Origin: an uncultured Candidatus Nemicrothrix sp.
Lineage (GTDB): Bacteria; Actinomycetota; Acidimicrobiia; Acidimicrobiales; Aldehydirespiratoraceae
DNA length: 60,061 nt
Direction of reading: 5' to 3'
Assembly (NCBI GenBank): GCA_964513285.1
Contig: CAZEML010000001.1
Location: 6,702-66,762 of the forward strand
Part shown: in pieces, positions 15,024-57,622 of the stretch
Numbering within the stretch: the first letter of the stretch is position 1
Layout of the letters: each line of letters begins with the position of its first letter
The notes under the pieces: model-generated
Told to the model about the DNA's origin: nothing
The model's input: the letters and a program-made list of their open reading frames with translations, nothing else
Database searches by the model: none
Made by a program: the position numbers and the translations under genes

Positions 15024-15070
15024 CGCAAAACTGTACGCGTGTTCAATTTCGAGGGCTAGCGTTCGCCGCC

Positions 15071-15685
15071 ATGGCGGAGATCGATCTGGTGGCGTGGGAC
15101 TTCGGTGACACCCTCGTGCACGAACGCTTCATGCGCATCGCGCCCGACGGCGTCCCCGAGTGGCCGACGGTGTACGACCGGTTCTTCGAAGCCCACCCCG
15201 AGTTCGAGGATCGACTCGATCACGGGCGGGCGTCGATGATCGAGATGATCCCGTGGCTGGCGGAACAGACCGGCATGACGGGATCCGCCGTCGCCCGTCA
15301 CCTCCGTCACGTGTGGACCCAGATCGAATGGTTCGAACCGAGCCGGCGGTGGCTCCTCGGCCTGTCCGGTCGGGTGGCGCAAGCCGTCGTGACCGTGAAT
15401 CCGTTCGAGTTCTCGGGGATGGCGACCGCGTGTGGGCTCGATCCCCACGTCGAACTCATCGTCACGAGCGCCGACATCGGCGACCGCAGCAAGCCCGCGA
15501 TGGCACGGGTCGCCCGCGAGCTGCTCGGCCTCCCGCTGGGCCTCGGCACGACCGTGCTGATCGACAACCGGGCCGACAACGTCGCCGACTTCGTCCGGGA
15601 AGGTGGTCACGCCATCCACTTCCGGCCCGAGGACCCGGGGCGGCTCGACGACGAGCTCGCCCAGTACGTCGGCCCGCCCGGCTGA
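15071..15685 (+). CDS. HAD-superfamily hydrolase
   Basis: Motif I VAWDFGDTLV (DxDxT/L) at the N-terminus, later TSADIG..KP and a VLIDNRADN motif. Confidence 0.65.
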   Translation: MAEIDLVAWDFGDTLVHERFMRIAPDGVPEWPTVYDRFFEAHPEFEDRLDHGRASMIEMIPWLAEQTGMTGSAVARHLRHVWTQIEWFEPSRRWLLGLSGRVAQAVVTVNPFEFSGMATACGLDPHVELIVTSADIGDRSKPAMARVARELLGLPLGLGTTVLIDNRADNVADFVREGGHAIHFRPEDPGRLDDELAQYVGPPG

Positions 15686-17789: not shown

Positions 17790-17830
17790 GACTCTTGACC
17801 AAGTCCAGAATCGGTGCTGTACTCCCCGAC

Positions 17831-18256
17831 GTGAGCGACTCGACCGGGCCCGACATCGCGCAGGAACTGCGCGACCACGGACTCCAGGTGACCGCCCAGC
17901 GCATCGCCGTGATGGAGGCCGTCACCGGCCACCCCCACACCACGCCTGATGAGCTGGCCGAAGTCGTCCGCAACAAGATCGGGTCGATCTCCCGCCAGGC
18001 GGTGTACGACACGCTCGGGGTCTTCGTCGAGAAGAACCTCGTCCGTCGGATCCAGCCGAGCGGATGGGTTGCCCGGTACGAGGCGCGGGTGGGAGACAAT
18101 CACCACCATCTCGTGTGCCGAGGGTGCGATCTGATGTATGACATCGACTGTGCCGTGGGCTACACGCCGTGTCTCACCGCTGACGACGACCATGGGTTCG
18201 TGATCGACGAAGCCGAAGTCGTCTACTGGGGCATGTGCCCCGCCTGCCAGGCCTAG
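17831..18256 (+). CDS. furA: Fur-family peroxide-responsive regulator (FurA type)
   Basis: [24 protein letters not shown] winged helix, [10 protein letters not shown] and C-terminal CPAC. Lies immediately upstream of katG as in mycobacteria and streptomycetes. GTG 17831 is preferred over the TTG at 17795 used by the track, so the start is uncertain. Confidence 0.8.
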
Positions 18257-18319
18257 CCCGGCCGGGGCCGCTCCGTGGTCCCCACCCCTCACCGCAGCAA
18301 CAGAAGCAAAAGGAATCAC

Positions 18320-20461
<2,142 letters not shown>

Positions 20462-20490: not shown

Positions 20491-20550
20491 CGAGTGATCT
20501 GCAGCTCGACTGCAGCGAGTGATCTGCGGCGCAGCCGCAGCAAGTGACAG
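20490..20550 (+). repeat. 25-nt tandem repeat (about 2.4 copies), each unit with its own small palindrome
   Basis: GCGAGTGATCTGCAGCTCGACTGCA (20490-20514) and GCGAGTGATCTGCGGCGCAGCCGCA (20515-20539), then GCAAGTGACAG. Units contain CTGCAG..CTGCAG and CTGCGG..CCGCAG stems. The third partial unit includes the annotated GTG of paralog B. Confidence 0.8.
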
Positions 20551-22454: not shown

Positions 22455-22528
22455 CCGGGTTCGGCACGCGACGACGGGTAGGTCATGCGCCCCATTGAGC
22501 GCGGGGGTGCCCGTGCCGATGGAGTTCC

Positions 22529-24502
22529 GTGCGCACAACAGGAAGCGCGGCGACCACCAGCGCCGCCGATCTCACCGAGCACCGGTGGGCGGCCCGGAGA
22601 GTCCTGAGCTGGACGCTGCGCGCCGTCGTCATCGTCATCCCGGTGGCGGCAGCCCTCGCCGCCACCCGGCTCTACCTCGGCGTCTTCAGCCGACCCGACG
22701 CGCTCCTCCCCCAGGTCGCCTTCTGGCTCGGTGCGCTCGTGCTGTCCGTCGCCGCGTCGATCGCAGTGGAGCGATGGTCGCGGCGACTCCTGCCGCTCGC
22801 CGTGCTGTTTCGGATGTCGTTGGTCTTCCCCGATGAAGCACCGAGTCGCTTCCGGGTCGCACTTCGTGAGGGCAACTCCAAGAAGCTCGACCTCAGCGCC
22901 GAAGGCAGCGCCGCGCAGAATCTGGTGACGCTCGTCGGGGTGCTCAGCCGTCACGATCGCCTGACCCGCGGCCACTCCGAACGCGTTCGCGCCTACGCCG
23001 AGTTGATCGGCACGGAGATGGGGCTCGAGCCCGAGGAGCTCGAGAAGCTCCGGTGGGGCGCGCTGATCCACGACATCGGCAAGCTGACCGTGCCCCCGGA
23101 GCTGCTCAACAAAGCCGGCAAGCCCACCGACGAGGAGTGGCAGATCATCCGAGCCCACCCAGCGGCGTCGGAGGCGTACCTCGGCGCGATCTCCCCATGG
23201 CTCGGCGAGTGGGCCAAGGCCGCCGAGGAACATCACGAGCGCTGGGACGGTGGCGGATACCCGGCCGGGTTGGCGGGTGAAGAGATCAGCCGAGCTGGAC
23301 GCATCGTCGCCGTCGCCGACGCCTACGACGTGATGACGTCAGCCCGCAGCTACAAGCAGGCGCTGAGTCCCTCACTCGCGCGCGAGGAGCTCGCTCGTAA
23401 CGCCGGCAGCCAGTTCGACCCCGAGGTCGTGCGGGCGATGCTGCGCGTCTCGCTCGGCAAGCTCCGCCTGGTCCTCGGACCGCTCGGTTGGCTGAACGAG
23501 TTGGCGTGGGTCTCTCAGGTGCCGCAAGCCGCAACGACGGCTGCGGTCACCGCCTCGACGGCCGCCATGGTCAGTGTCGGCGCCGTCATCGCCGTCGAGC
23601 CACCGGCCGAACCGGCCGAAGCGGCCGCGGTCGAACGCGTCGTCGAGATCGACGAAGACGCTCCATCCACGACCACCCTCGTGGCCCAACCGACCACCAC
23701 GCTGACCGCCATCGGCGTGGAGCCGTCAGCAGCACCGAGCACCACGACAACGACGACCTCGCCCGCTTCCACCACGACGACCACCGGGGCACCGACCACC
23801 ACGCTCGCCGCCGTTGCGGCCGGACCGGCGGTCACCACCACCACGACGTCGCCCGCACCGGCGCCGACGATCCCGACCACGGCACCTACGCCGACCACGA
23901 CCACCGTGCCGCCCACCACGACCGCGCCGACGACCACCGCTGCGCCAGCCACGACGACGACCGGGGCACCGACCACGACCACCGTGCCGCCCACCACGAC
24001 GCCGCCCACAACCGTGCCCGTCGCGCCGGACCCGACCGGATCCGGCTTCGTCATGGTCGACGTCGCCAGTCTCCCGGCGCACCTCGGCAACGGCCAGCTC
24101 ACCTCGAGCGACCACATGTTCGTCTGGTCAGAGGGCGCCAAGATCGTGGCCGCACCGGTGACGCTGCGATCCTTCACCGACGGTGAAGGTTTTGACGGGT
24201 CGAGCAACGCGACGGTGACCGTTCCGAGCGGCACCTGGGTGTGCACGTACTTCGTGCACTACGACCCCGACTGGATCGTCGATGATCGAAGCATCGAACT
24301 GGACTTCGGCACCGTCCCCCTCGGCTTCGCGATGCAAAACAGTGACCTCGACGCCACCCATGGCTACGGCGCGCCGATCGATCACCGAACCGACGGCCTC
24401 GGCGTCGCGGACACCGGCGAGGTCCAGGGCACGTCCATCACCTTTACGTTCGACTACAGCTTCTTCGGGCGAGACCAGGTCCGGATCTTCCTCCCCTGCT
24501 GA
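22529..24502 (+). CDS. Membrane HD-GYP phosphodiesterase paralog C
   Basis: GTG start 74 nt after the B stop. Has HRWAARRVLSW, TMs, RRLLPLAVLFRMSLVFPDEAPSRF, LIHDIGK, HHERWDGGGYP, a long STTTTTTSPASTTTTTGAPTTT... stalk, and a C-terminal domain ending GRDQVRIFLPC. Confidence 0.85.
   Translation: MRTTGSAATTSAADLTEHRWAARRVLSWTLRAVVIVIPVAAALAATRLYLGVFSRPDALLPQVAFWLGALVLSVAASIAVERWSRRLLPLAVLFRMSLVFPDEAPSRFRVALREGNSKKLDLSAEGSAAQNLVTLVGVLSRHDRLTRGHSERVRAYAELIGTEMGLEPEELEKLRWGALIHDIGKLTVPPELLNKAGKPTDEEWQIIRAHPAASEAYLGAISPWLGEWAKAAEEHHERWDGGGYPAGLAGEEISRAGRIVAVADAYDVMTSARSYKQALSPSLAREELARNAGSQFDPEVVRAMLRVSLGKLRLVLGPLGWLNELAWVSQVPQAATTAAVTASTAAMVSVGAVIAVEPPAEPAEAAAVERVVEIDEDAPSTTTLVAQPTTTLTAIGVEPSAAPSTTTTTTSPASTTTTTGAPTTTLAAVAAGPAVTTTTTSPAPAPTIPTTAPTPTTTTVPPTTTAPTTTAAPATTTTGAPTTTTVPPTTTPPTTVPVAPDPTGSGFVMVDVASLPAHLGNGQLTSSDHMFVWSEGAKIVAAPVTLRSFTDGEGFDGSSNATVTVPSGTWVCTYFVHYDPDWIVDDRSIELDFGTVPLGFAMQNSDLDATHGYGAPIDHRTDGLGVADTGEVQGTSITFTFDYSFFGRDQVRIFLPC
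23665..24030 (+). repeat. Thr/Pro/Ala-rich low-complexity coding repeat (stalk of paralog C)
   Basis: Repeated PTTT / APTTTT units, e.g. GAPTTTTVPPTTT occurs twice. Confidence 0.9.
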
Positions 24503-24552
24503 GCTGACGCACCACAACCCGACACGGCGCTGAGCCAGTAGCTTGGGCGGCC

Positions 24553-26406
24553 GTGGCACGAGGGACTTCCACGGGGCAGCGCTGGCGCGACCGTCGTTTC
24601 GTCAGCTGGGGGCTGCGGCTCGTCGTCTTCGCCGCGCCGATCGCCGCTGGCGTCCTCGCGGTGTGGGTGTACACGAGGTTCGTCGATCGGCCGGCCGCGT
24701 TCTTCGCCCAGCTCCTGTTCTGGCTCGTCGCGATCGCGATCGCCGTGGTCGCGGGGCTCGCCGTCGACCGCGTCACCCGGCGGCTCTTGCCGGTCGCCAT
24801 GCTGTTCCGAATGTCGCTGGCCTTCCCCGGCGAGGCCCCCAATCGGCTCGCCCTCGCATTCGGGAAGGGCCCGGTCTCGGCGTCGGCACTGGAGTCGACC
24901 ACCAAGCTGAGCAGCGACGACACCGCCGCGCGACATCTCCTCGCCCTCGTCTCGATCCTCGCCCGCCACGACCCGCGAACGGGTGGCCACTCCGAACGAG
25001 TCCGGGCCTACGCCGACATGATCGCGACCGAGATGGGACTGTCGCCCGCCGCGCTCGACCGCGTGCGCTGGGGCGCCCTGATCCACGACATCGGCAAGCT
25101 GTCGGTCCCGCCCGAGATCCTCGGTGGCGGCGACCGTCCATCGCCGGAGGAGTGGGCGATGATCCGCGACCACGCGATCGGGTCCGAACCGTTCCTGTTC
25201 GCCGTCACCGACTGGCTGGGCGACGGCGCCCTCGCGGCGGTGCAGCATCACGAACGCTGGGACGGTGCCGGCTACCCGGACGGCCTCGCCGGCGACGAGA
25301 TCAGCCTCGTGGCTCGCATCGTCTCCGTCGCCGACACCTACGACGCGATGACCTCGACCCGCAGCTACCGGGAGCCGTTGCGTCCGAGCATGGCTCGCGA
25401 ACAGGTCGCCCGACAGGCCGGCGCCCAGTTCGACCCGAAGGTGGTCGCCGCGTTCCTCGACGTACCGGTGTGGCGACTCCGTCTCGTCCTCGGACCCCTC
25501 GGCTGGCTGAACGAGTTCTTGTGGTTCACCCGACTGCCGCACGCCGCGACCGGCGCTGCCGTCACCGCCGCGGTGGTCGGCGTCTTCGGCCTCGGGGGCG
25601 CGATCGTGTTCTCGTCCCCCGCCGACTCCTCCGATGGCGACGAGGACGACGTCGTCGCGCCGGTCGAGACGAGCACGACGACCACCAGCTCCACCACGAC
25701 GACCAGCACGTCCACCACCACGACCCAGCCGCCGGCGACGACCACCCCGACGACGACCTCGATCGTGCTGACCACCACCTCGACCTCGACGACGACCACG
25801 AGCACCACCACGACGACCACGACGGTGGCGCCGACCACGACCGCGGCTCCTCCACCGACGACCACTGCTGCACCGCCGACCACCACCACGACGACGACCA
25901 CCACCACGACCCTCGCCCCGACCCCGCCCGAGCCGACCGGGACCGGGTTCACGATCGTCGACCCGGCGACCCTTCCGGCCGACCTCGGCGACGGCGAGCT
26001 CACCTCGGACACCGACGTGTTCGTGTGGGCGGAGGGCATCGCCACCACCGCGGCCGACATCGAGCTCCGCTCGTTCACCGACGGCGTCCCCGTGCCGGGC
26101 GACAGCGCGACGACCGCCACGCTCGCGTCCGGCACGCAGGTCTGCACCTACCTCGTGCACGCCGACCCGATCGGTGCGGCGACCCCGTTCACCACCGAGC
26201 TCGACTTCGGCGTCGTGCCCCTCGGCTTCGCGTTGACGACACTCGATCTCCAAGACACCGACGAATTCGAGATCGACGGCGTCGACCATCAGCTCGATGG
26301 GTTCGAGAGCACCGACGTCGTGACCGTCGACGGCACCATGATCACGATCGACCTGGTCTCGACCGCGGGCAGCCGCGATCAGGTCCGGATCTTCATTCCC
26401 TGCTGA
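24553..26406 (+). CDS. Membrane HD-GYP phosphodiesterase paralog D
   Basis: GTG start 50 nt after the C stop. Has QRWRDRRFVSW, TMs, RRLLPVAMLFRMSLAFPGEAPNRL, LIHDIGK, HHERWDGAGYP, a TSTTTTSSTTTTSTSTTTTQPPATTTPTTT... stalk, and a C-terminal domain ending SRDQVRIFIPC. Confidence 0.85.
   Translation: MARGTSTGQRWRDRRFVSWGLRLVVFAAPIAAGVLAVWVYTRFVDRPAAFFAQLLFWLVAIAIAVVAGLAVDRVTRRLLPVAMLFRMSLAFPGEAPNRLALAFGKGPVSASALESTTKLSSDDTAARHLLALVSILARHDPRTGGHSERVRAYADMIATEMGLSPAALDRVRWGALIHDIGKLSVPPEILGGGDRPSPEEWAMIRDHAIGSEPFLFAVTDWLGDGALAAVQHHERWDGAGYPDGLAGDEISLVARIVSVADTYDAMTSTRSYREPLRPSMAREQVARQAGAQFDPKVVAAFLDVPVWRLRLVLGPLGWLNEFLWFTRLPHAATGAAVTAAVVGVFGLGGAIVFSSPADSSDGDEDDVVAPVETSTTTTSSTTTTSTSTTTTQPPATTTPTTTSIVLTTTSTSTTTTSTTTTTTTVAPTTTAAPPPTTTAAPPTTTTTTTTTTTLAPTPPEPTGTGFTIVDPATLPADLGDGELTSDTDVFVWAEGIATTAADIELRSFTDGVPVPGDSATTATLASGTQVCTYLVHADPIGAATPFTTELDFGVVPLGFALTTLDLQDTDEFEIDGVDHQLDGFESTDVVTVDGTMITIDLVSTAGSRDQVRIFIPC
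25670..25935 (+). repeat. Thr/Ser/Pro-rich low-complexity coding repeat (stalk of paralog D)
   Basis: Almost pure ACC/ACG/AGC/CCG codon runs encoding (S/T)TTTT units. Confidence 0.9.
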
Positions 26407-34501: not shown

Positions 34502-34556
34502 ACCCCGACCCTACGCCGGTCGTGAGCGACGCGAGAGCGCAACCTAAACTCCCCTC

Positions 34557-35129
34557 ATGGAGACTCCACCCGTCCTCGAAGCGTTCGTCACCGCATGTGA
34601 AGACGTGGTCGCGTCCGGCACCGACGTACCGCAGTCGATCGCCGGGCTTCTGCGTGAGCTGGTGAGCGACCACGCGGGGTTGGCGGCAGCGGTCCCGGCG
34701 TTCAGCGACGACGAGGTCGAAACGTCGGCGCAGGGCCATCGACTGGGCGGAGAGGCCGTGCTTCACCGAGCGTCGGATCTCACCGTCATGGTGCTCGACA
34801 CGTTGCCGGGGGTGATCCAACCGGCGCACGACCACGCGATGAACGCCTTCATCGGCGTGTTCGAGGGGTGCGAGGAGCAACGCTTCTGGACGCGCACGAG
34901 CGACGGGGTCGAGGCGACGACGGGGCGCATGCTCGAGGCGGGTGAGATCGTGGCGTTGGGTGAACGGGCGATCCATGCGATCAGCTCGCCCGAGGGTCAG
35001 GCGGCGAGGGCCGTACACGTCTATCTGGGCGACATCTATGACGTGGAGCGGTCGGTGTTCGAGCCCGAGACGATGGCTGAGCACCCGATGACGAGTGACC
35101 GCTACGACGAGTTCTGCCGCCCCGCCTAG
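34557..35129 (+). CDS. Cupin-superfamily protein (cysteine dioxygenase type I-like / COG5553-like)
   Basis: VIQPAHDHAMNAFIGVFEG ... AIHAISSPEG ... AVHVY pattern of a metal-binding double-stranded beta helix. Weak assignment. Confidence 0.4.
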   Translation: METPPVLEAFVTACEDVVASGTDVPQSIAGLLRELVSDHAGLAAAVPAFSDDEVETSAQGHRLGGEAVLHRASDLTVMVLDTLPGVIQPAHDHAMNAFIGVFEGCEEQRFWTRTSDGVEATTGRMLEAGEIVALGERAIHAISSPEGQAARAVHVYLGDIYDVERSVFEPETMAEHPMTSDRYDEFCRPA

Positions 35130-42260: not shown

Positions 42261-43445
42261 TCACGCCGTGAACGGAAGCGATTCGTAGCGCCGGACGAAC
42301 CCGCCCGGCGCGAACCGCCCGGCGGCCGCATCGACCTCGAAGTCGGGGAAGCGCTCGAGCATCCGGGCGAGGGCGACCCGTCCTTGGAGCCGGGCCGCCG
42401 CCGCGCCGAGACAGTGATGGGCGCCGTATCCCAGGCTCAGCATCTTGTCGATGTCGCGGCGAACGTCGAGCTGCGCCGCGTCGTCGCCGAACTCCCGCTC
42501 GTCGCGGTTCGCCGAGCCGTAGAGGAGCAACACCTTCTCGCCGGCCGGAACCACGACGTCGCCGATCTCGACATCGCTGGTGGTGGTTCGGGCGAGGTTC
42601 TGCACCGGCGAGGTCAGCCGGAGGAGCTCTTCGACCGCTGCCGCCATGCGCGACGGTTCGTCGAGCAGGACCTGCCGCTGATCTCGGTGGGCGGTGAGCA
42701 ACTCCGCCGACCCACCGAGCAGCCCGGTCATGGTGTCGTTGCCGCCGGTGACCATCGTGAAGACGAACCCGACGACCCACCCGGCCGAGACGACGTCCTC
42801 CCCCACCTCGACCAGATCGGTGATGAGGTCCTCGCCGGGCTCGGTCTTCTTGAGCTCCATCAGTTCGGCGGCGAACCCCAGCAGCGCCATCGTTGCGTCC
42901 ATCGCCGACTCGAACGACCCTTCGGCGTTGGCGGCGACGATCGCGTTGGTCCACTCGTCGAAGCTCGACCGGGTCTCGACCGGGACCCCGAGATAGTGGG
43001 CGACGACGAACGACGGCAACGGCTTGAACAGCAGCTCGACGATGTCGACAGCCCCGCCGGAGTCCTCGACCCGATCGAGGCGCTCGTCGACGAACGCTCG
43101 CACGGCGTCCTCGATCAGATGCACGCGCCGGGGAGTCATCTGTTTGCCGACCAGGCGCCGCATCGCGGTGTGGTCGGGCGGGTCCATCATCACGATCGGC
43201 TGTTGGCCGTCCTCGAACATCGCCATCGCGTCGGCGTTCGGTGTGAGCCCCTGGGCCGACGAGAACGTGTCGGTGTCGCGGACGGCCGCGAACACGTCGG
43301 CGAACCGCGACAGCACGTAGAAGTCGGTGTTGTCGCCGGCGGCCGGCACGAAGTGCACCGGTGACTCGTCACGCAGACGCCGATAGTCCCCCCATGGCGA
43401 TCGCCACGCCTCGCCACCCCGGAGCTCGAACGCGATGTCGTTCAT
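42261..43445 (-). CDS. Cytochrome P450
   Basis: Heme loop SLGYGAHHCLGAAAARLQ (FxxGxHxCxG variant), I-helix TMVTGGNDT and EELLRL (ExxR). Start at Met13 (MNDIAFEL). Confidence 0.9.
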   Translation of the reverse strand: MNDIAFELRGGEAWRSPWGDYRRLRDESPVHFVPAAGDNTDFYVLSRFADVFAAVRDTDTFSSAQGLTPNADAMAMFEDGQQPIVMMDPPDHTAMRRLVGKQMTPRRVHLIEDAVRAFVDERLDRVEDSGGAVDIVELLFKPLPSFVVAHYLGVPVETRSSFDEWTNAIVAANAEGSFESAMDATMALLGFAAELMELKKTEPGEDLITDLVEVGEDVVSAGWVVGFVFTMVTGGNDTMTGLLGGSAELLTAHRDQRQVLLDEPSRMAAAVEELLRLTSPVQNLARTTTSDVEIGDVVVPAGEKVLLLYGSANRDEREFGDDAAQLDVRRDIDKMLSLGYGAHHCLGAAAARLQGRVALARMLERFPDFEVDAAAGRFAPGGFVRRYESLPFTA

Positions 43446-43545
43446 GGCCCGAGTTGACCGGCTCCGCCGCCGCTCGGTCAATTCGATCCCGAGCGCGGCA
43501 CGGGCCGGGATCGCTCCCGGCCCGCGACACTCGTCTTCGAGAGAC

Positions 43546-44022
43546 TCAGCCCAGCAGGTCGCCGAGCTGCTCCGCGATTTCTTCGGGCGTGATCATCGGG
43601 TTGAACCGGGCCACGACCTCACCGCTCGAGTTCACGAGGAACTTCTCGAAGTTCCAGGTGATGTCGTTGGTCTCGCCGTCACCGGGCTGCTCGCTGCGGA
43701 GCCACTGGTAGAGCTCGGCCGCCTCGTCGCCGTTGACGTCGATCTTGGCGAACATCGGGAAGTCGATGTTGTAGTTGTCGGTGACGAAGGCCCGGATCTC
43801 TTCAGCGGAGCCGGGTTCCTGGCCGCCGAACTGGTTGCACGGGAAGCCCAGGACGCGGACCCCGTTGTCGTCGTGATGAAGCGTACGCAGACCTGCGTAC
43901 TGAGGCGTGAGGCCTCAAGCGGAAGCGACGTTGACGACGAGACAGGCCTGGTCGGCGAAGTCCGAGAAGGACACCTGCTCACCCTCAAGCGACGCCATGG
44001 TGAAGTCATGGAATCGGCTCAT
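43546..44022 (-). CDS. Glutathione peroxidase with in-frame TGA at the catalytic position (codon 36, 43915-43917): probable selenocysteine enzyme
   Basis: My own minus-strand translation from ATG 44022: MSRFHDFTMASLEGEQVSFSDFADQACLVVNVASA-TGA-GLTPQYAGLRTLHHDDNGVRVLGFPCNQFGGQEPG...FPMFAKIDVNGDE...WNFEKFLV. The TGA replaces the peroxidatic Cys of the NVAS.CG(L/F)T motif. The frame is continuous with the 69-aa track ORF 43546-43755. A SECIS-like hairpin follows. Confidence 0.75.
43883..43900 (-). other. Candidate bacterial SECIS hairpin
   Basis: mRNA GUACGCAGGUCUGCGUAC begins 14 nt after the UGA, with a 7-8 bp perfect stem. The apical GCAGGUCUGC is identical to the apical part of the E. coli fdhF SECIS minihelix (GGUUGCAGGUCUGCACC, from memory). 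The GGUC loop is 3 nt further from the UGA than in fdhF. Confidence 0.65.
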
Positions 44023-44043
44023 GGCCGAGGATGGTAGCGCGGG

Positions 44044-45078
44044 CTACGCCTTGGTCCGGCGGGCGGACCAATGGGCGGTGGCACCGGCGGCCTGGAAGCG
44101 CTCCGGACGGTCTTCGGGGCCGAGGATCTCGGTCGCCAGCCACAACCGCTTCAACCACCGGACCCGGCCTGAGTCGGTGTCGTCGACGTAGGGCTTGCGG
44201 CCGTGCAGCACGTGGTAGTTGTTCACGAACTGCATGTCGCCGGCGTCGAAGGTCATCTCGACCCAGTGATCGGGATCGTCGACGAGGGCGGAGTAGGCCT
44301 TCATCGCCGCCCGCTGGGTCTCGGTGAGTCGAGGGGCCTCTTCGTGGCGCTGCGACGCGAGGATGAACTGCGGGATGTAGCGCACGAAGAGGCGACCGTC
44401 CTGCCGGCTGAACGCGGGCACGTGGTAGTACGGCTTGCCGTCCTTGGCCTGCTCGCCGCGGAAGTCGTACGGGAGTCCCTCATAGAGCGCGCCGGCGAGT
44501 TCGGGATCGGACTCGACGAGCAGGTTGTGGCAGAGCAAGGCGTTGGAGATCAGGCTCTCGCCACCGGACACACCCGGATCGAGGCACAGCAGCCCGACCA
44601 GATCCGAGCCGTCGGAGTGGAAGCCGAGTCCGGCGCCACCGATCTCGTTGCCGCGGGCGGTCGGGTCGTCGATCGACTTGCCCTGATCCTTCACGTCGCC
44701 GAGGAGATGCCCCTTGGCGTTCTGGGGCCACGGCACGCCGAGGTGCAGCCCGACGCCCCAGTAGATCCAGGACGAGTCCTCGGGGCCGAGCCGGTCGACG
44801 GGCAGGCCCGAGATCCGTTGAAAGCCGCGGCCGTTGATCAGTTCCTGCGCGATGCCGTCGAGGACCGGCACGAGCGTGTCGAGCGGGAAGTGTTCCTTGT
44901 CGACGTCGAGCACCTCGTCGGTGTGGGCGCGGGCGACGGCGAGCGCCGCCTCGAGCTCGGCGATCTCGGCGTCGGTCAGACGATGGGTCCAGACCTCGGG
45001 GTCGACGACGTCGGCCGCTCGCCATTCGGCGTGGCGTTCGAGCGGGTTGACCTCGGCGGCGCTGAGGGCGGTGGCCAT
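44044..45078 (-). CDS. TauD/TfdA-family Fe(II)/2OG dioxygenase
   Basis: Start MATALSAAE at 45078. GFHSDGSD (HxD) and NNYHVLHGR (distal His/Arg). Confidence 0.75.
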   Translation of the reverse strand: MATALSAAEVNPLERHAEWRAADVVDPEVWTHRLTDAEIAELEAALAVARAHTDEVLDVDKEHFPLDTLVPVLDGIAQELINGRGFQRISGLPVDRLGPEDSSWIYWGVGLHLGVPWPQNAKGHLLGDVKDQGKSIDDPTARGNEIGGAGLGFHSDGSDLVGLLCLDPGVSGGESLISNALLCHNLLVESDPELAGALYEGLPYDFRGEQAKDGKPYYHVPAFSRQDGRLFVRYIPQFILASQRHEEAPRLTETQRAAMKAYSALVDDPDHWVEMTFDAGDMQFVNNYHVLHGRKPYVDDTDSGRVRWLKRLWLATEILGPEDRPERFQAAGATAHWSARRTKA

Positions 45079-45080
45079 GT

Positions 45081-46814
45081 TCAGGCTCCCTTCGCTGCGG
45101 TCGGCGCGGGCTGGGCGCCGCGGACGAGACCGCCGGGCAGCTCGCCGGTGGCGACCCCTTCGGCGTAGGTCTCGGTGCCGGCGACGAAGGTGTGGGCGTA
45201 GCCGTCGGCCCGCTGGACCACTCGGCGACCGCCGGCCGGCAGGTCGTACAGCAGCTCGGGCTGATGCACTCGGAGCCGGTCGAAGTCGATGATGTTGATG
45301 TCGGCCCGGTAGCCGGGGGCGAGCACACCGCGATCCTCGAGGCCGACGAGGCGCGCGGTGTCGCGGCACTGGCGTTGGATCAGGAACTCGACGTCGATGC
45401 GCTCGCCGTCGCGGTCACGACCCCAGTGCTGCAGCAGCGTGGTCGGGAACGAGCCGTCACAGATCGTGCCGACATGGGCGCCACCGTCGGACAAGGCCGG
45501 GACCGTGTACGGATGGGTGAGCAGCTCACGGGTGCCGTCGAGGTTGCCCTGCCCGTAGTTGGAGAACGGCACCCACAGCATCGCGGTGCCGTCGTTCTCG
45601 AGCATCGCGTCGAGCGCGACCTCGGCCGGCGCTCGTCCCTCGCGGGCGGCGATCGCGGCCATCGTGTTGGCCATGTCGGGCTCGTAGTTCGGGCTCTCGC
45701 CGAGGGCGAACATGATGTCGAACTTCTCGATGAGTCGGCCGCCGACCGCCTGCATGTCCTTGCCGCCGGCCGCCTCGAGCAGACGGGCCCGGAACGCGGG
45801 ATCCCGCAGGGCGGCGGTGCGGTCGTCCTTGGGCAGGTCGGCGATCTCGCGGAACACCGGGTTGACCAGGAAGGGGTTGAGCGTGCACTCGAACCCGAGC
45901 AGCACCCCGATCGGCCGCACCGCGGTCTGGCCGGTGACGGTGAGGCCGTCGGAGCGAGCGGACTCGATGTGGCCGAGGATCGCGCGGTGGTAGTCGTAGC
46001 CACGAGGCGACTCGACGAGGGTGAAGCTGATCGGGCGGCCCGACGACTCCGTCATCGCCCGCACGATCGCGAACTCACCATCGATGTCGGTGAAGTCGCT
46101 GACCAGCTGCAACACGCCCTTGCCGGTCGTGCCGATCGCTTCGGCGATCCCCACCAGCTCCTCGCGAGCGGCGGTGAGGGTCGGGGTCGGTTCGCCGAGC
46201 GAGGTCTTGTGGTTCTGGGTCCGACTGGTCGTGAACCCGAGAAAGCCGGCATCGACCCCTTCGGCCGCGAGCCGGCCCATCTCGGCGATGTCGCTCGGGG
46301 TCGCGTCCTCGCCCTTGGCGCCCCGCTCCCCCATCACGTGCAACCGCAGCGCCGCGTGGGGCACCTGGGCGGCGATGTCCATGTCCTTGGGTCCGCCGAG
46401 TGCGTCGAGGTACTCGGGCAGCGAGTTCCAGTTCCAGGCGAGCCCTTCGTGGAGTGCGGTGCCGGGGATGTCCTCCACCCCCTCCATCAACTGCACGAGC
46501 CGGTCGTGGTCGGTGTCGTGCACCGGGGCGAACCCGACGCCGCAGTTGCCGAACACGACCGTGGTGACCCCATGCCACGACGACGGCTGCATCGTCGCCT
46601 CCCACGTGGCCTGGCCGTCGTAGTGGGTGTGCACGTCGACGAACCCGGGCGCGACCACGGCGCCATCGGCGTCGACCTCACGGTGGGCGGACCCCTCGAC
46701 CCGCCCGACCTCGGTGATGACACCGTCACGGACGGCCACATCGGCGGTGCGACGGGCCGAGCCGGTGCCGTCGATCACCGTTCCGCCGCGGATGATCAGA
46801 TCATGTTCAGCCAT
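45081..46814 (-). CDS. N-acyl-D-amino-acid deacylase (D-aminoacylase) family amidohydrolase
   Basis: DLIIRGGTVIDGTG...VAVRDGVITEVG...APGFVDVHTHYDGQ, plus length ~577 aa. Confidence 0.8.
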   Translation of the reverse strand: MAEHDLIIRGGTVIDGTGSARRTADVAVRDGVITEVGRVEGSAHREVDADGAVVAPGFVDVHTHYDGQATWEATMQPSSWHGVTTVVFGNCGVGFAPVHDTDHDRLVQLMEGVEDIPGTALHEGLAWNWNSLPEYLDALGGPKDMDIAAQVPHAALRLHVMGERGAKGEDATPSDIAEMGRLAAEGVDAGFLGFTTSRTQNHKTSLGEPTPTLTAAREELVGIAEAIGTTGKGVLQLVSDFTDIDGEFAIVRAMTESSGRPISFTLVESPRGYDYHRAILGHIESARSDGLTVTGQTAVRPIGVLLGFECTLNPFLVNPVFREIADLPKDDRTAALRDPAFRARLLEAAGGKDMQAVGGRLIEKFDIMFALGESPNYEPDMANTMAAIAAREGRAPAEVALDAMLENDGTAMLWVPFSNYGQGNLDGTRELLTHPYTVPALSDGGAHVGTICDGSFPTTLLQHWGRDRDGERIDVEFLIQRQCRDTARLVGLEDRGVLAPGYRADINIIDFDRLRVHQPELLYDLPAGGRRVVQRADGYAHTFVAGTETYAEGVATGELPGGLVRGAQPAPTAAKGA

Positions 46815-47665: not shown

Positions 47666-49639
47666 TCACTCGTCGAGGTAGACGGTGGTGGCCAACCACG
47701 ACGCGACATCGAGCGCCGGCGCGGTGATCATCGGCTGGAACGGCGAATCGCCGGTGAAGTTGCGGCCGTACAAGAACCCGAAGTCGTCGAAGGCGGCGGC
47801 GTCATCGCCTGAGGGCGGCTGAATCACGCCATCGACGAGCCACCGGCTCGGCTCGACCTCGACGGCGAGCTCAGGATGCGCGGTGAGCGCGGCGTTGGCG
47901 AAGATCACCTCGGCATCGGTCGGCAGCGGGGGGCCGACATGGGTGGGCGTCGCGACGAAGAGATCGTGGAGCACCGACCGACTCGTGGGATACCGGCTGA
48001 CGTCGTCGGGGAGCAGGCGGTCGCCGGCCTCGCTGATCACCTGACCGACGACGAAGCCGAGTCCGACCGTCGACCAGGTCGGCGGACCGCCGAGGAATGG
48101 GAGGAGCTGCTTGGCCCCGAAGCCGGCGCCCGTGCGGAAGGCGCTCCGCAACAGGCTGCGATCCGTCGAGTCCGGCTGGAGTTCGCTCAGCGCGTGGTGG
48201 AGGTGCCCGAACCCGCGGTGGGCGCCGACGCCCGCCTCCGCGATCGCCTCCGGCGACCCGTCCACGAAGGCACCTGCGTAGAGCACTTCCAGATAGGCCC
48301 CGAACCCGGCCATGACCTCGAGCCGGGCGGTCTCGTCGGTGAAGATCTCCACGAGGACGGCGCCGCCGACGTCGTCGGTCGGCCGGATGCCGTTGTCGAG
48401 GGAGGCGACGTTGTGCCACTGCAGGTTCCACACGTCCGCGAGCACCTGGCGGAGTTCGGCGCTCCGAGGCAGGCCGAGCTCGGCAATGTCGTGGAAGAGG
48501 CCCGGGACGTGCACCTCGTATCCCTGAGCATCGATGGTCGAGCCACCGCCGAGGAAGTCATAGATCTGCTCGCTGCGGTGCGGATCGATCAGCGCCGCCT
48601 CGAACAGCGCCGCCAACCCGTCACCGAGCCGGGAGCCGCCGCTCATCCGGCTGATGCCGTAGGCCCGCTCGAGATCGGTGCCGCCGAAGGGCCCGTAGTC
48701 GTCGAACTCCATGAGTCGACGGAACGCCCCCTCCTCGAGGACCAGTCGCCGCGCCAGGTCCGGCTGACGGCCGATCGCCTCCAGCAGGACCGTGTGCGGA
48801 TCGATCAGCCGCGGGAAGAGGAACTCCGACTCGACGATCTCCATCGCGCCGGCGAGCCGCCCGTACCCACCCCAGAAGTCCGACGGGGTCGTGAAGATCC
48901 GTTCGTAGAGGTCGTACAGGAAGGCGTCGTCCCAGTCGCCGTGCAGCAAGGCGACGGGCAGGAAGTTCGTGTCGGTGTCGGGCTGCTCGAGGTGGAACAC
49001 GGCCTCGAGCACCTCGCGCCCCTCGTCGTGGTGGCTGAAGCTGGCGAGCAGCGCGCCGTAGAGCTGGAAGGTCTCGTCGAATGCAGCGGCTTCCGCCTCG
49101 GCGCTCTCGACCCAGCCCTCCTCTCGCGAGTAGCCGTGGAGATCCCACGACAGGGTGACCTCGATCATCTGATCGTGGAGGCGGTCGCGGAGCGCCTCGA
49201 TCCCGTCGGCTCCGAGTTCGCGAGCGATCGCTCGAGAGGCATCGCGGTCGGTGATCGCCCGGATGGTCAGCTCGGCCATCGCCGCGTCGTGCTCGTCGCC
49301 GTGCAACATCGCGACGAGGTCGGCCACACGCTGTCGTCGGAGATGGTCGGTGCGACGCGGGATCGCGGTGAGCACCCCGTCGGCGGCGAGGGTCTCCACA
49401 TAGTCGATCCGCCAGGCGAGGTCGTCGTGGTCGGCACTGAGCTGATCGGCGAGCGCCTGGAGGTAGCCCACCGCGCGAGCCCCCGAATCGCCGTCGGCCA
49501 GGTAGGGCAGGAACGGCCGAGCGCTGTCGAGCGCTCGCCCGAATCCCTCGATGTCGGTGACGACCGCGTCGATCGCCCGCTGGTAGAGCCGCTCGAGAAT
49601 CTGGGCCGGGTAGACGTGGAGGACGATGGTGTCGCTCAT
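47666..49639 (-). CDS. Hypothetical 657-aa cytoplasmic-looking protein, no domain recognised
   Basis: Start MSDTIVLHVYPAQ at 49639 overlaps the stop of the upstream small gene (TGATG). Coding-like composition (acidic, Leu/Ala-rich, no Arg/Pro bias) continues to the stop at 47666. The upstream 162 codons of track ORF 47666-50125 are Arg/Pro/Gly-rich and lie out of frame over the small gene. Confidence 0.6.
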   Translation of the reverse strand: MSDTIVLHVYPAQILERLYQRAIDAVVTDIEGFGRALDSARPFLPYLADGDSGARAVGYLQALADQLSADHDDLAWRIDYVETLAADGVLTAIPRRTDHLRRQRVADLVAMLHGDEHDAAMAELTIRAITDRDASRAIARELGADGIEALRDRLHDQMIEVTLSWDLHGYSREEGWVESAEAEAAAFDETFQLYGALLASFSHHDEGREVLEAVFHLEQPDTDTNFLPVALLHGDWDDAFLYDLYERIFTTPSDFWGGYGRLAGAMEIVESEFLFPRLIDPHTVLLEAIGRQPDLARRLVLEEGAFRRLMEFDDYGPFGGTDLERAYGISRMSGGSRLGDGLAALFEAALIDPHRSEQIYDFLGGGSTIDAQGYEVHVPGLFHDIAELGLPRSAELRQVLADVWNLQWHNVASLDNGIRPTDDVGGAVLVEIFTDETARLEVMAGFGAYLEVLYAGAFVDGSPEAIAEAGVGAHRGFGHLHHALSELQPDSTDRSLLRSAFRTGAGFGAKQLLPFLGGPPTWSTVGLGFVVGQVISEAGDRLLPDDVSRYPTSRSVLHDLFVATPTHVGPPLPTDAEVIFANAALTAHPELAVEVEPSRWLVDGVIQPPSGDDAAAFDDFGFLYGRNFTGDSPFQPMITAPALDVASWLATTVYLDE

Positions 49640-50076
49640 CAGCGCACGCCGTGGGGCACCGGGGCACGCGAGGACTGCACGGGGTCGAACACCACCGGAG
49701 GCGGTGTCACTCCCGCCAGCGCAGCGGCCGACGCCGCTTCGGCCGCGAGGGCATCGAGATGGTTCGCCTCGCGGCGATAGTCCGACGCCGTGAGCTCGAG
49801 CACCTCGGCTCGGCGGCGGACCTGACCGACGACCTCGGTGATCGCCAGCCGAGCCCGGGCCAAGTTGCGAGCACCGGAGAATCGGAGGCGCATGCGGCTG
49901 GCGGTCGCGGCCCGGGAATCCCACACCTCGGTGGTGTGGCGGTTCAGGACGGGTGTCAGCCGATGTTCGAGTGCCTGGTTGTGCCGCTCGAGGGTGACCG
50001 CGACCTCGCGGGCCGCGACGGCGTCGCGCTCGGCCCGATCGGCGGCGACGCGAAGAGCGGCAGCATCGGTTGGCAT
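49639..50076 (-). CDS. Hypothetical 145-aa all-helical protein (helix-turn-helix hairpin with W-x-S turn, WXG100-like only by topology)
   Basis: ATG at 50076 with GAGGAG 7 nt upstream. MPTDAAALRVAADRAERDAVAAREVAVTLERHNQALE...TTEVWDSRAATASRMRL...LELTASDYRREANHLDALAAEA, then a Pro-rich tail. Translationally coupled to the 657-aa gene. Confidence 0.55.
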   Translation of the reverse strand: MPTDAAALRVAADRAERDAVAAREVAVTLERHNQALEHRLTPVLNRHTTEVWDSRAATASRMRLRFSGARNLARARLAITEVVGQVRRRAEVLELTASDYRREANHLDALAAEAASAAALAGVTPPPVVFDPVQSSRAPVPHGVR

Positions 50077-50130
50077 CGACTGACTCCTCTGACCGGCCCC
50101 GAGACACGACACGGGGCGACAACAAGTCAG

Positions 50131-50159
50131 AAGGTATGGAAAAGCACGAAAGTTGTCAA
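50131..50159 (-). promoter_or_regulatory. Sigma-70-type promoter for the 145-aa / 657-aa gene pair
   Basis: Minus strand reads TTGACA (50159-50154), a 17-nt spacer, then TACCTT (50136-50131, fits the actinobacterial TANNNT). Lies in a local AT-rich patch about 55 nt upstream of the ATG. Confidence 0.55.
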
Positions 50160-56518: not shown

Positions 56519-56629
56519 ACTGATCCCGCATCGTCTGGATCTCGCTGAAACTTCGGCGGAGAAGCCGGCGACCTTTACGGCCAATTCGGCTCATCTTCCA
56601 CCACATCGAACGGCCCAGTCGGGGCTGGG

Positions 56630-57622
56630 TCAGACGAAGGTGGAGACGCCCTCGAACCGGACGGGCTTCACGCCGCGGCTGGCGAGCGTGCGCAGTACGC
56701 CGACCGTGTCGGAGACCGCCGCGAGCCCATCGGCACCGGGACCGAGATCGCCGGCCAAGGCATGCAGCGTCGCGGTCGCGGCCATCGCCCCGGCCGCCAC
56801 CGCCGGGCGCTCGATCGCGCCGTAGACCGAGACCCGCCGCTCGATGCCGACTCGACCGCGCAGCTCGACTCGGATCGCCCCGATCCCGCCCTCGGGATGC
56901 GGGCGACGAAGCATCGGCAACGGCGCCGTGAGCCGGTCGTTGCGAGTCGCCGCCTGCCGGGCCGTGACCCGCTGCACCCGGTCGAAGTGCGGGACGATCA
57001 GAAGCGCATCGGGAAGCGCGGCCCGATAGCAATCGCGACCACCGACCGGATCGGGGAACCACGCCAGCTCGCGACCGGATCCACCCGCACGCCGAGTCCA
57101 GCGCCCGTCCCGCCAATCGATGCCGGTCGAGCTCAGCGCACGGTGATGCTGACGAGCGCACGCCGGACCACCGGTGCCCACCTTGGCGACGTGGATCTCC
57201 TCGATCTCGTCGTACTCGCGAGCGCCGTGGCGGGCGAGCAGACAGGTCAGACCCGGCATGAACCCGGCACCGACGACCACGGGCACCTCGCGGTAGCGAG
57301 CCTCGTCGTCGAGGGTCAGGAGTCGGCGGACCTCAGAGGTCTGATTGGAAGTGGTGACGACCGGGACACCTTCGTGCACGGCTCGTCGGGCGAGCCCGAC
57401 CTGGGTGCCCGGTGGACTGGCGATCACGACCGCATCGGGCGACCCGGTGATGCGCCGACCCAGCCCCGGCTGCGCACCGTCGCCGAGTGAATCGAGCAGG
57501 CGTCGCAGCCGCTCGGCATTGGGATCGCGGATCTCGAGCTCCTCGACCTCGCCGCTGGAGCGCAGCTGACGGGCGATCCGGGCACCGGTCGCGCCGGCAC
57601 CGAAGAGCAGGACCCGGCTCAT
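56630..57622 (-). CDS. Saccharopine dehydrogenase-like NAD(P)-binding protein
   Basis: Start MSRVLLFGAGATGARIARQL (Rossmann GxGxxG) at 57622. ~330 aa. Domain call is tentative. Confidence 0.5.
   Translation of the reverse strand: MSRVLLFGAGATGARIARQLRSSGEVEELEIRDPNAERLRRLLDSLGDGAQPGLGRRITGSPDAVVIASPPGTQVGLARRAVHEGVPVVTTSNQTSEVRRLLTLDDEARYREVPVVVGAGFMPGLTCLLARHGAREYDEIEEIHVAKVGTGGPACARQHHRALSSTGIDWRDGRWTRRAGGSGRELAWFPDPVGGRDCYRAALPDALLIVPHFDRVQRVTARQAATRNDRLTAPLPMLRRPHPEGGIGAIRVELRGRVGIERRVSVYGAIERPAVAAGAMAATATLHALAGDLGPGADGLAAVSDTVGVLRTLASRGVKPVRFEGVSTFV

Follow-up and report, generated by a model that had tools for sequence, protein, structure and literature searches.

Conservation of an in-frame UGA and of an RNA hairpin just behind it argues strongly that the minus-strand gene at 43546..44022 of the window (the whole stretch of DNA analysed, 60,061 nucleotides long) encodes a functional selenocysteine-containing glutathione peroxidase (Sec-GPx), in which the UGA would be decoded via the hairpin acting as a SECIS element. 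We put the probability of this reading at about 0.9. What the sequence comparisons bring out is the evolutionary signature of recoding, which is carried by the following elements:

43546..44022, minus strand: complete coding sequence of the predicted Sec-GPx, from ATG 44022 to the terminal TGA at 43548..43546; 158 codons/residues, with Sec at residue 36.
43915..43917, minus strand: in-frame UGA, the putative Sec codon 36, at the peroxidatic position; motif U-G-L-T, a case of UxxT.
43883..43900, minus strand: putative SECIS hairpin GUACGCA-GGUC-UGCGUAC, with a 7-bp stem and a 4-nt loop at 43893..43890; encodes (Q)Y-A-G-L-R-T.

Translation of the minus strand over 44022..43546 gives 158 codons with a sole internal stop, the TGA at codon 36, which is set in the context VVNVASA-*-GLTPQY. 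The start is supported by the N-terminus MSRFHDF, which is kept in five homologous loci (L001-L005). The mechanical ORF list for the locus holds just a 69-aa fragment (43546..43755), compared to gene calls of 102-121 aa in the GPx relatives, and this gene and many relatives appear in databases as 'glutathione peroxidase' fragments of 69, 102 or 121 residues, if they were called at all. A preliminary description of this DNA had already read the gene as a full-length GPx running from ATG 44022, with only a 69-aa fragment in the ORF track, and had expected automated annotation to break up such a gene; all of this is borne out, both here and, as far as truncated calls are concerned, in the relatives. 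Elsewhere TGA acts as the usual terminator, closing 32 of the 43 complete ORFs in the window (the end of the GPx gene included), and therefore the genetic code is not reassigned.

The TGA at the peroxidatic codon recurs in many other genes. Across 77 aligned genome loci codon 36 is TGA in 9 and TGC or TGT in 68; the nine closest genome homologues (L001-L008 and L010, from Acidimicrobiales, Actinomycetota, Myxococcota and Gammaproteobacteria MAGs) all have TGA at this codon, and the farther ones TGC or TGT. A pattern scan found TGA here in at least about 117 independent bacterial-type metagenome loci, and TGA together with the hairpin likewise in at least about 117 such loci. Among the matches listed, 107 distinct full-length Sec-type homologues, 52-91% identical to the window protein at the amino acid level, each contain exactly one internal stop. 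The preliminary description had placed the TGA precisely where GPx enzymes carry their peroxidatic Cys or Sec, and had judged that a random nonsense mutation would not be expected to fall there with a hairpin behind it. Both points hold up well, since the TGA aligns with TGC/TGT in the 68 homologues and is shared by 9/9 of the closest ones, and since TGA and hairpin go together in the metagenome loci while the hairpin is missing from the 68 Cys types. Its remark that Sec-GPx is rare in bacteria stands for cultured genomes but not for marine metagenomes, where the pattern scan gave at least 120 matches.

With Cys written for the stop, the product matches Pfam PF00255 (GSHPx) at 128.8 bits (cut-off 27, E 8e-38) over profile positions 1-108 of 108. 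The catalytic tetrad U36, Q68, W123 and N124 is complete and shows little or no variation among 175 aligned homologues. Apart from the UGA, the key codons are:

43819..43821, minus strand: catalytic Gln68 (FGGQEP); Q in 106/107 Sec-type and 68/68 Cys-type sequences.
43651..43656, minus strand: catalytic Trp123-Asn124 (WNFEKF); invariant except in one gapped sequence.
43783..43785, minus strand: codon 80 (Val), which in the homologue alignment is the site of the resolving Cys of 2-Cys GPx.

The tetrad aligns with that of S. mansoni GPx (2v1m), the best match among solved structures, with Gln68 opposite its Gln, and we take Gln68 to be the equivalent of the catalytic Gln81 of GPX4. Position 80 is Cys in 68/68 Cys-type sequences and Ala, Val or Ile in 107/107 Sec-type ones (0/107 Cys). 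The product probably works as a GPX4-like one-selenol peroxidase and not as a thioredoxin-dependent 2-Cys GPx; the gene points to a GPX4-like peroxidase without resolving Cys in bacteria. GPX4-type Sec-GPx (human GPX4 and the S. mansoni enzyme) are the best structure matches; 2v1m has an E of 5.5e-40, and the GPX4 entries lie at about 1e-36 to 1e-37. Like the window protein, these enzymes have Sec at the peroxidatic position, the full tetrad, no resolving Cys in the alpha-2 region and a monomer-sized chain of 158-170 residues, but the eukaryotic SECIS is found in the 3' UTR and has another structure. The 2-Cys thioredoxin-dependent CysGPx, which include yeast Hyr1/Gpx3 (3cmi), poplar GPx5 (2p5q) and most bacterial GPx homologues, have the same fold and tetrad, are 47-57% identical to the window protein and also contain the cysteine of FPCNQF; they differ in having Cys for Sec and a resolving Cys at position 80 of the window protein, and in lacking the hairpin.

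The SECIS hairpin begins 14 nt past the UGA, with 21 nt separating the UGA from its loop. Its MFE by itself is -8.5 kcal/mol, and since the fold of a 66-nt segment differs from shuffles by a z-score of only -1.6, which is not significant, it is the comparative data, rather than thermodynamics, that carry the case for the structure. The bacterial SECIS consensus describes an apical loop of 3-9 nt, an upper stem of 4-16 bp, a G within the first two loop positions, a UGA-loop gap of 16-37 nt and an MFE of -7.5 kcal/mol or lower (PMC13188914), and the hairpin falls within it, with a loop of 4 nt that opens with GG, a stem of 7 bp, the 21-nt spacing and the MFE given above. Rfam searches gave no SECIS match either at the gathering score over the whole window or at E <= 10 over 43780-44000, which says little because Rfam is without a general bacterial SECIS model.

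Across 99 distinct sequences the hairpin is paired in 96.4% of cells, with double changes at three pairs, and its covariation score was reached by 0/500 shuffles. In L136, L151, L176 and L193 a C-G pair has become U-A through TAC>TAT and CGT>CAT, at the cost of an Arg to His exchange; in L117 and L127 a G-C pair has become A-U through Ala>Thr and Arg>Cys; and U-A alternates with U-G in a ratio of 58/41. At codons 42-46 normalised synonymous entropy falls to 0.06-0.27, compared to 0.5-0.9 elsewhere. The codons TAC-GCA-GGT-CTG-CGT are near-invariant among Sec-type sequences and are retained in 28-29 of the 34 clusters (below 70% amino acid identity), while GCA and GGT are minority codons at the other Ala and Gly positions of the alignment; for CGT no comparable Arg position was tabulated. 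The 68 Cys-type homologues lack the hairpin, forming on average 2.4 of the seven pairs and at most five, with an MFE of -1.0 compared to -8.5 kcal/mol; a 65% identical Cys-type sequence, P0004, retains YAGLR. The coding-region hairpin is also missing from the eukaryote-like, intron-containing Sec-GPx loci of the metagenome scan. Judged from these alignments, selection acts on the hairpin as an RNA structure. The hairpin proposed earlier, 14 nt after the UGA at 43900..43883 with a 7-bp stem and GGUC loop, is thus there, and among homologues it is both conserved and covarying.

How close is it to the E. coli fdhF SECIS, with whose apical part the preliminary description had equated it? The 42-nt fdhF element, which is 100% identical in fdhF of 5419 E. 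coli genomes, contains GCAGGTCTGC, and the apical decamer GCAGGUCUGC (3 bp plus the GGUC tetraloop) is identical in the two hairpins and read in the same frame (Ala-Gly-Leu); both also lie in the coding sequence straight after the UGA. The likeness of the apical 10 nt is therefore confirmed, but it does not extend further. The bulged U in the upper stem, which E. coli SelB needs, is missing from the perfect 7-bp stem here, and the lower stem is GUAC/GUAC instead of GGU(U)/ACC. The fdhF minimal hairpin lies 11 nt from its UGA, whereas here the hairpin starts at 14 nt, and the loop follows the UGA after 21 nt instead of 18, i.e. 3 nt later. Finally, the fdhF UGA sits at the base of one long hairpin, while here it appears to belong to a separate small one. 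With the bulge missing and the spacing longer, the hairpin is similar to the fdhF element without being identical to it, and recognition by the SelB of the host is assumed. Outside GPx, apical decamers occur 32 times in 1.16 Mb, in 0 cases behind an in-frame TGA. The near-invariant hairpin sharing its apical 10 nt with fdhF would represent a compact natural SECIS.

Taking the E. coli fdhF paradigm, from which we infer the mechanism, the UGA at codon 36 would be decoded during translation instead of acting as a stop, with the 18-nt hairpin 14 nt downstream serving as bacterial SECIS. SelB carrying Sec-tRNA(Sec) would bind to its GGUC loop and to the G-C-rich upper part of its stem. With the UGA in the A site, the hairpin would lie at the ribosome's mRNA entrance, and Sec would be inserted. 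In catalysis the selenolate would be oxidised to selenenic acid and then reduced by an external thiol.

The alternative that survives best, although its probability is low, is that the UGA is decoded via SECIS and SelB as Cys, or facultatively as Sec or Cys depending on selenium supply. For some Actinobacteria a tRNA(Cys) that resembles tRNA-Sec and has the anticodon UCA has been described, and such decoding would use the same UGA and hairpin and fits all the comparative data, while nothing speaks for it directly. The close syntenic orthologue L203 has TGT at the Sec codon with the hairpin intact, and so Cys is tolerated at codon 36; this is also the opposite of TGC without a hairpin in close relatives, the pattern that the preliminary description had named as contrary to its proposal. 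However, plain TGC would be a cheaper way to encode Cys, yet UGA and hairpin are maintained in more than 100 lineages, and the uniform absence of the resolving Cys from Sec-type sequences fits a selenol mechanism. Moreover, ARAGORN detected no UCA-anticodon tRNA in either the window or the related loci.

Another possibility is that the UGA mainly terminates, giving a 35-aa peptide with the rest of the gene untranslated or independently initiated, and that the hairpin would serve as a signal for stability or attenuation. RF2 competes with recoding at bacterial UGA codons, and hence a certain amount of termination at codon 36 is to be expected. Access to the UGA could in addition be modulated by a second structure:

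43901..43917, minus strand: candidate small hairpin UGAGGC-CUCAC-GCCUCA, which includes the UGA and abuts the SECIS hairpin; tentative.

This small hairpin appears in the predicted MFE fold and has -8.2 kcal/mol by itself, and 4 of its 6 pairs are dictated by the protein sequence. Its A3-U15 pair is favoured by the use of CCT at Pro40 in 58% of sequences, compared to 3-10% at two other Pro codons, but the enrichment drops to 12/34 once sequences are clustered at 70% identity, and pair 6-12 is no better than chance (44 observed, 39.8 expected). For these reasons the assignment is only tentative; by sequestering the UGA the small hairpin may form a second part of the recoding element. As the main fate of the UGA, termination is even less probable than decoding as Cys: there is no conserved start after the UGA (the first in the window comes 54 codons downstream), both halves of the protein make up one fold and are co-conserved in a single frame, and the hairpin is found only with TGA or its one-step derivatives, never in Cys-type genes.

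That the gene is a pseudogene, its catalytic codon hit by chance by a nonsense mutation and its hairpin a coincidence, we consider very improbable. The gene callers do give just the 69-aa fragment and the Sec machinery is not found within the window, but all 107 distinct genes, the most distant at 52% identity, share this TGA and contain no other internal stop, and the sequence on either side of it is under purifying selection: in Sec-type sequences pN is below pS upstream (0.30 and 0.55) as well as downstream (0.23 and 0.49), with dN/dS of 0-0.23 for close pairs. The hairpin, in turn, is conserved at synonymous sites and covaries. True decay looks different, as in the degraded copy L140, where the hairpin is deleted and extra stops are present. 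In the gene itself, degenerative changes of the kind named as a possible refutation were looked for and none were seen, since it has one internal stop, an intact tetrad and the pN below pS noted above. Least probable of all is a sequencing or assembly error for TGC or TGT, a further refutation raised earlier and now excluded: single-contig codon variants do exist, namely TGT in L203 and CGA (Arg) in L204, where the CGA itself may be an error, but four separately assembled samples hold the window's gene with TGA at 99.2-100% nucleotide identity, the identical truncated gene call is seen on 18 contigs and at least about 117 further loci have TGA.

Decoding of the UGA as Sec presupposes a Sec machinery. 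In the 60-kb window ARAGORN found only tRNA-Ile and no tRNA-Sec, Pfam scans of its 44 ORFs gave no SelA-, SelB- or SelD-type domains, and tblastn with E. coli SelA, SelB and SelD together with ARAGORN gave no matches in the window and 200 related loci (1.16 Mb). With selA, selB, selC and selD not found in the window or in the flanks of these loci, we infer the Sec capacity of the host, the Sec-GPx gene marking it as a probable selenocysteine user. In Actinomarinales, another order of the same class, selA, selB, selC and selD have been reported (preprint 10.64898/2026.04.03.716425).

Bacterial GPx-like selenoproteins with a UxxT motif are a recognised family, described since 2005; they came to light in a small number of genomes and in the Sargasso Sea and GOS metagenomes, and a 2026 review lists them as 'predicted with high confidence' (PMC1088965, PMC2398784, PMC13188914). 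The window copy shares the family's PF00255 domain, peroxidatic Sec in UxxT (here U-G-L-T), marine habitat and coding-region stem-loop with an apical-loop G just downstream. The source genome is marine, high in GC (68.7%) and Acidimicrobiales-like, and the copy that it contributes shows no difference in kind from the family. The known picture of bacterial Sec decoding is unchanged. Our literature search found no paper naming Sec-GPx in Acidimicrobiales, and in the accessible portions of the Sec-GPx literature we found no mention of either the loss of the resolving Cys or the near-invariance of the hairpin in Sec types. Because the genes are called as fragments or missed, this antioxidant selenoenzyme group is under-counted in the abundant marine Acidimicrobiia, and through the same fragment annotation their selenium dependence would be missed too. 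A more far-reaching idea, which we offer as speculative and rather unlikely, is that bacterial Sec-GPx form one horizontally spread group (Acidimicrobiales, Myxococcota and Gammaproteobacteria MAGs) with an obligatory loss of the resolving Cys, amounting to an independent GPX4-like one-selenol mechanism, a two-hairpin element in which a 6-bp UGA-sequestering hairpin abuts the SelB hairpin, and an apical decamer that matches the fdhF one exactly and has hardly changed between phyla. We found no description of these three linked features.

A search of the window for further selenoprotein genes, as TGA with coding-like GC3 on both sides, gave, besides the GPx TGA itself, three tightly spaced adjacent gene pairs; of the other hits one probably marks the genuine end of a Fur-family gene, and the rest were judged by eye to be non-coding or antisense. 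A scan of 43300-45600 for promoters and terminators found none. The GPx gene is flanked by:

44044..45078 (start approximate), minus strand: TauD-family dioxygenase (Pfam TauD, 98 bits), the upstream neighbour.
42261..43481, minus strand: cytochrome P450 (Pfam), the downstream neighbour, followed by SnoaL-like and AzlC/D genes.

The stop of the TauD-family gene precedes the GPx ATG by 21 nt, and the TauD-GPx order is also found in L204 and L206. The order GPx-P450-SnoaL-AzlD-AzlC is shared with L203, and this P450/SnoaL/Azl neighbourhood is conserved synteny that lies outside the recoding device.

Translated from the ATG at 44022, the minus strand encodes a full-length glutathione peroxidase (GPx) interrupted just once, by TGA at codon 36 (43917..43915 (-), context VVNVASA-*-GLTPQY), just as the preliminary description had claimed; with Cys placed at the stop, the protein covers the whole Pfam GSHPx profile (PF00255), scoring 128.8 bits where the cut-off is 27. 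Of this gene, the mechanical ORF list contains just the 69-aa tail (43546..43755), as had also been noticed. We consider that the gene very probably (roughly 0.9) encodes a selenocysteine (Sec) GPx with SECIS-dependent recoding of the UGA. This interpretation, put forward initially from the sequence, is supported by the conserved TGA, by purifying selection and by a hairpin selected as RNA. The elements concerned are:

44022..43546, minus strand: Sec-GPx ORF, ATG 44022 to terminal TGA 43548..43546, 158 codons (translation)
43900..43883, minus strand: SECIS hairpin GUACGCA-GGUC-UGCGUAC, starting 14 nt after the UGA (fold prediction)
43917..43901, minus strand: candidate small hairpin UGAGGC/GCCUCA, abutting the SECIS hairpin (MFE fold)

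TGA is the terminator of 32 of the 43 complete ORFs in the window and of the GPx gene itself, therefore the genetic code is not reassigned. A sequencing error or a decay mutation is ruled out by recurrence of the TGA in four samples, by 107 genes with one stop each and by pN below pS. The exact 69-aa fragment is called on 18 contigs; in four of these, from different samples, the gene is complete, 99.2-100% identical in nucleotides, and has both TGA and hairpin. TGA stands at codon 36 (Sec-type) in the nine closest (L001-L008 and L010; 54-91% aa identity; Acidimicrobiales, Actinomycetota, Myxococcota and Gammaproteobacteria MAGs) of the best 80 relatives from a species-level genome collection, and 68 more distant ones carry TGC or TGT (Cys-type), which settles the comparison of homologous codons that had been proposed as a check. 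A metagenome scan with a DNA pattern fixing only N-V-A-x-x-TGA-G-x-T-P-Q-Y, the hairpin left free, gave at least 120 matches; from all loci, among the matches listed, 107 distinct full-length Sec-type genes were rebuilt, 52-91% identical to the window protein and each with exactly one in-frame stop. In Sec-type genes pN is lower than pS both upstream (0.30 and 0.55) and downstream (0.23 and 0.49) of the TGA, therefore both halves are translated in one frame, and dN/dS is 0-0.23 for the closest pairs. One locus (L140:58-125) is a degraded Sec-GPx copy in which the hairpin's apical part is deleted between two GTACGC repeats and more stops follow; it represents either real decay or a mis-assembly.

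The SECIS hairpin is predicted as a perfect 7-bp stem with a 4-nt loop, at -8.5 kcal/mol when folded alone. It lies within the bSECIS consensus as described in PMC13188914: loop of 3-9 nt (here 4), stem of 4-16 bp (7), G in the first two loop positions (GG), 16-37 nt from the UGA (21) and MFE <= -7.5 kcal/mol. The 66-nt region gains no significant stability over shuffles (z = -1.6), so thermodynamics alone is no proof. The pattern of variation, however, shows that the hairpin is selected as RNA. Among the 116 bacterial-type loci in the matches listed, all seven stem pairs are formed in 102; the variants are GTACGCAGGTCTGCGTAC in 50, GTACGCAGGTCTGCGTGC in 47 (U-A to U-G) and GCC-GGGT-TGC in 10, one of which begins ATAC rather than GTAC. 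Across 99 distinct 54-nt sequences pairing is kept in 96.4% of helix cells, both sides have changed at three of the seven pairs, and none of 500 shuffles scores as high for covariation; when the 3' partner is slid, pairing over the two hairpins taken together falls from 90% to 19-59%. Compensatory double changes even alter the protein, with TAC>TAT plus CGT>CAT (Arg to His) in L136, L151, L176 and L193, and GCA>ACA/ACC plus CGT>TGT (Ala to Thr and Arg to Cys) in L117 and L127. Covariation, the other check suggested initially, is thus present in a conserved hairpin. Normalised codon entropy at codons 42-46 (Y-A-G-L-R) is 0.18, 0.20, 0.27, 0.17 and 0.06, against 0.5-0.9 at neighbouring conserved codons. 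Elsewhere in the Sec-type alignment, Ala and Gly positions use GCA and GGT as minority codons (tabulated for these two residues), and GCA, GGT, CTG and CGT are kept in 28-29 of 34 clusters (below 70% aa identity between clusters). The Cys-type control (68-69 homologues) encodes Y-E/A/K-G-L-E/Q at this site and forms a mean of 2.4 of the 7 pairs (maximum 5; MFE -1.0 kcal/mol).

Is this hairpin fdhF-like, as the preliminary description suggested? The 42-nt E. coli fdhF SECIS used for comparison matches at 100% in fdhF of 5419 E. coli genomes. The likeness holds for the apical decamer GCAGGTCTGC, which is common to both in the same reading frame (Ala-Gly-Leu), but does not extend further. A bulged U is a feature of the E. 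coli SECIS; the window hairpin lacks it, lies one codon farther from the UGA and has another lower part. By analogy, it would work like the fdhF SECIS yet is not the same element, and Rfam holds no model matching it. A bacterial-looking Sec-type GPx (L082:112-205 (-)), with QEPG kept and no intron, is without the usual hairpin; some 32 nt past its UGA, GAACUUU-UCGA-GAAGUUC can form instead, inside a wider fold of -32 kcal/mol, perhaps an alternative SECIS solution within this family.

The small hairpin at the UGA is a tentative candidate for sequestering that codon. Of its six pairs, four follow from the amino-acid sequence and were fixed by the metagenome search pattern, and therefore carry no information. 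The pair joining the A of UGA to the third codon base of Pro40 has some support: 58% of Sec-type genes use CCT there, whereas two other invariant Pro codons are CCT in 3% and 10%, and Pro40 itself is CCT in 7% of Cys-type genes, where TGC pairs with CCG. This excess is weaker after clustering at 70% identity (12/34 against 1/34 and 6/34), and the remaining free pair is at chance level.

Close relatives with TGC and no hairpin had been named as the pattern that would speak against Sec; the opposite is seen. The syntenic orthologue L203 (GPx-P450-SnoaL-AzlD-AzlC as in the window; 80% nt identical) has TGT (Cys) at codon 36 (L203:3082-3140), and L204 (TauD-GPx, 91% nt identical) has CGA (Arg; L204:1589-1645). 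Each is one nucleotide from TGA, and in both the hairpin is fully intact. L203 looks like a recent Sec-to-Cys switch, and L204 like an assembly error or an inactivating variant. About 11 metagenome loci among the matches listed lack the hairpin (2-5 of 7 pairs), and nine of them share GSTPQY-x-x-[LM]-NALQ and what looks like an intron behind CNQFG. Loci L091, L104, L129, L157, L161, L180, L183 and L188 (also L125 and L178) combine TGA at the Sec codon with this motif and such an intron, and lack a coding-region hairpin. The intron-bearing loci are presumably eukaryotic (algal) genes, and a SECIS in their 3' UTR would fit the missing coding-region hairpin.

The catalytic tetrad (U36, Q68, W123, N124) is present and essentially invariant in 175 aligned homologues, and among solved structures the protein is best matched by Schistosoma mansoni GPx (2v1m, E 5.5e-40), yeast Hyr1/Gpx3 and human GPX4. 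At residue 80, the resolving-Cys position of 2-Cys GPx, all 68 Cys-type sequences have Cys and all 107 Sec-type ones have Ala, Val or Ile; the resolving Cys is likewise missing from the close Cys variants P0002 and P0004. From the absence of the resolving Cys in Sec-type sequences we infer a one-selenol, GPX4-like cycle, which would be reduced by an external thiol, rather than a thioredoxin-dependent 2-Cys one. Nine residues ahead of Sec, Cys27 (43942-43944 (-)) is found in 64 of 107 Sec-type sequences; all 68 Cys-type homologues have Leu, Val or Ile there instead.

No tRNA-Sec was found in the window, nor SelA, SelB or SelD-type domains among its 44 ORFs; tblastn with E. coli SelA, SelB and SelD was negative both for the window and for 1.16 Mb of related loci, and no further TGA-interrupted coding regions are evident within the window. 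selA, selB, selC and selD are reported in all genomes of Actinomarinales, another order of the same class (2026 preprint, 10.64898/2026.04.03.716425), which makes the trait plausible for the class and is not evidence for the window organism itself. Bacterial Sec-GPx as a kind has been known for two decades: the Sargasso Sea selenoproteome describes five sequences with a UxxT motif and coding-region SECIS (PMC1088965), GOS data gave 40 Sec against 3,287 Cys homologues (PMC2398784), and the family is among the high-confidence predicted prokaryotic selenoproteins (PMC13188914). To this family the window gene adds a new member, from a marine, Acidimicrobiales-like genome of high GC. The missing resolving Cys in Sec-type proteins, the near-frozen hairpin across phyla and the candidate UGA-sequestering hairpin may go slightly beyond what these sources describe.

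The Sec-GPx finding is correct, and it helps annotation because many truncated versions of the gene (69, 102 and 121 aa) are present in public databases. About half of the best 120 database homologues are N-terminally truncated 'glutathione peroxidase' entries of 101-124 residues (including P0003, P0006, P0017, P0024, P0034, P0035 and P0068), starting at TTG, GTG or ATG just past the Sec codon; they are a systematic mis-annotation of this selenoprotein. In the window, the 69-aa call leaves an 'intergenic' gap of about 290 nt.

The neighbours of the GPx gene are:

44044-45078: TauD-family dioxygenase
42261-43481: cytochrome P450
41765-42436, 40727-41455: SnoaL-like and AzlC/AzlD

The order TauD-family dioxygenase, GPx, P450, SnoaL-like, AzlC/AzlD is conserved in L203, L204, L205 and L206, and GPx may be co-transcribed with oxygenases able to release peroxide. 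A G+C-rich hairpin, GGGCCGGGA-GCGA-TCCCGGCCC (43502-43523 (-); 9 bp, GCGA tetraloop), lies 22 nt past the terminal TGA and was missed by the terminator scan because it has no T-run. It formally satisfies the loose bSECIS consensus as well; since GPx homologues stop at the same LLG*, a role in termination or mRNA stability is probable.

Elsewhere in the window, no Pfam match (E <= 0.001) was obtained for the 829-codon ORF 47669-50155 (-), with coding-like GC3 of 0.83, or for ORFs 14999-15682, 16596-17345, 34548-35126 and 56549-57487. Three tandem paralogues of about 630-670 codons each (20523-26406 (+)) share an HD_5/HD (HD-GYP-like) domain, located at residues ~150-350, and extensive stretches of each are without Pfam match. 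A second peroxide-defence locus is found at 17792-20461 (+), where a Fur-family regulator sits directly 5' of, and in frame with, a catalase-peroxidase (734-codon ORF; Pfam 'peroxidase'), resembling the mycobacterial furA-katG arrangement.
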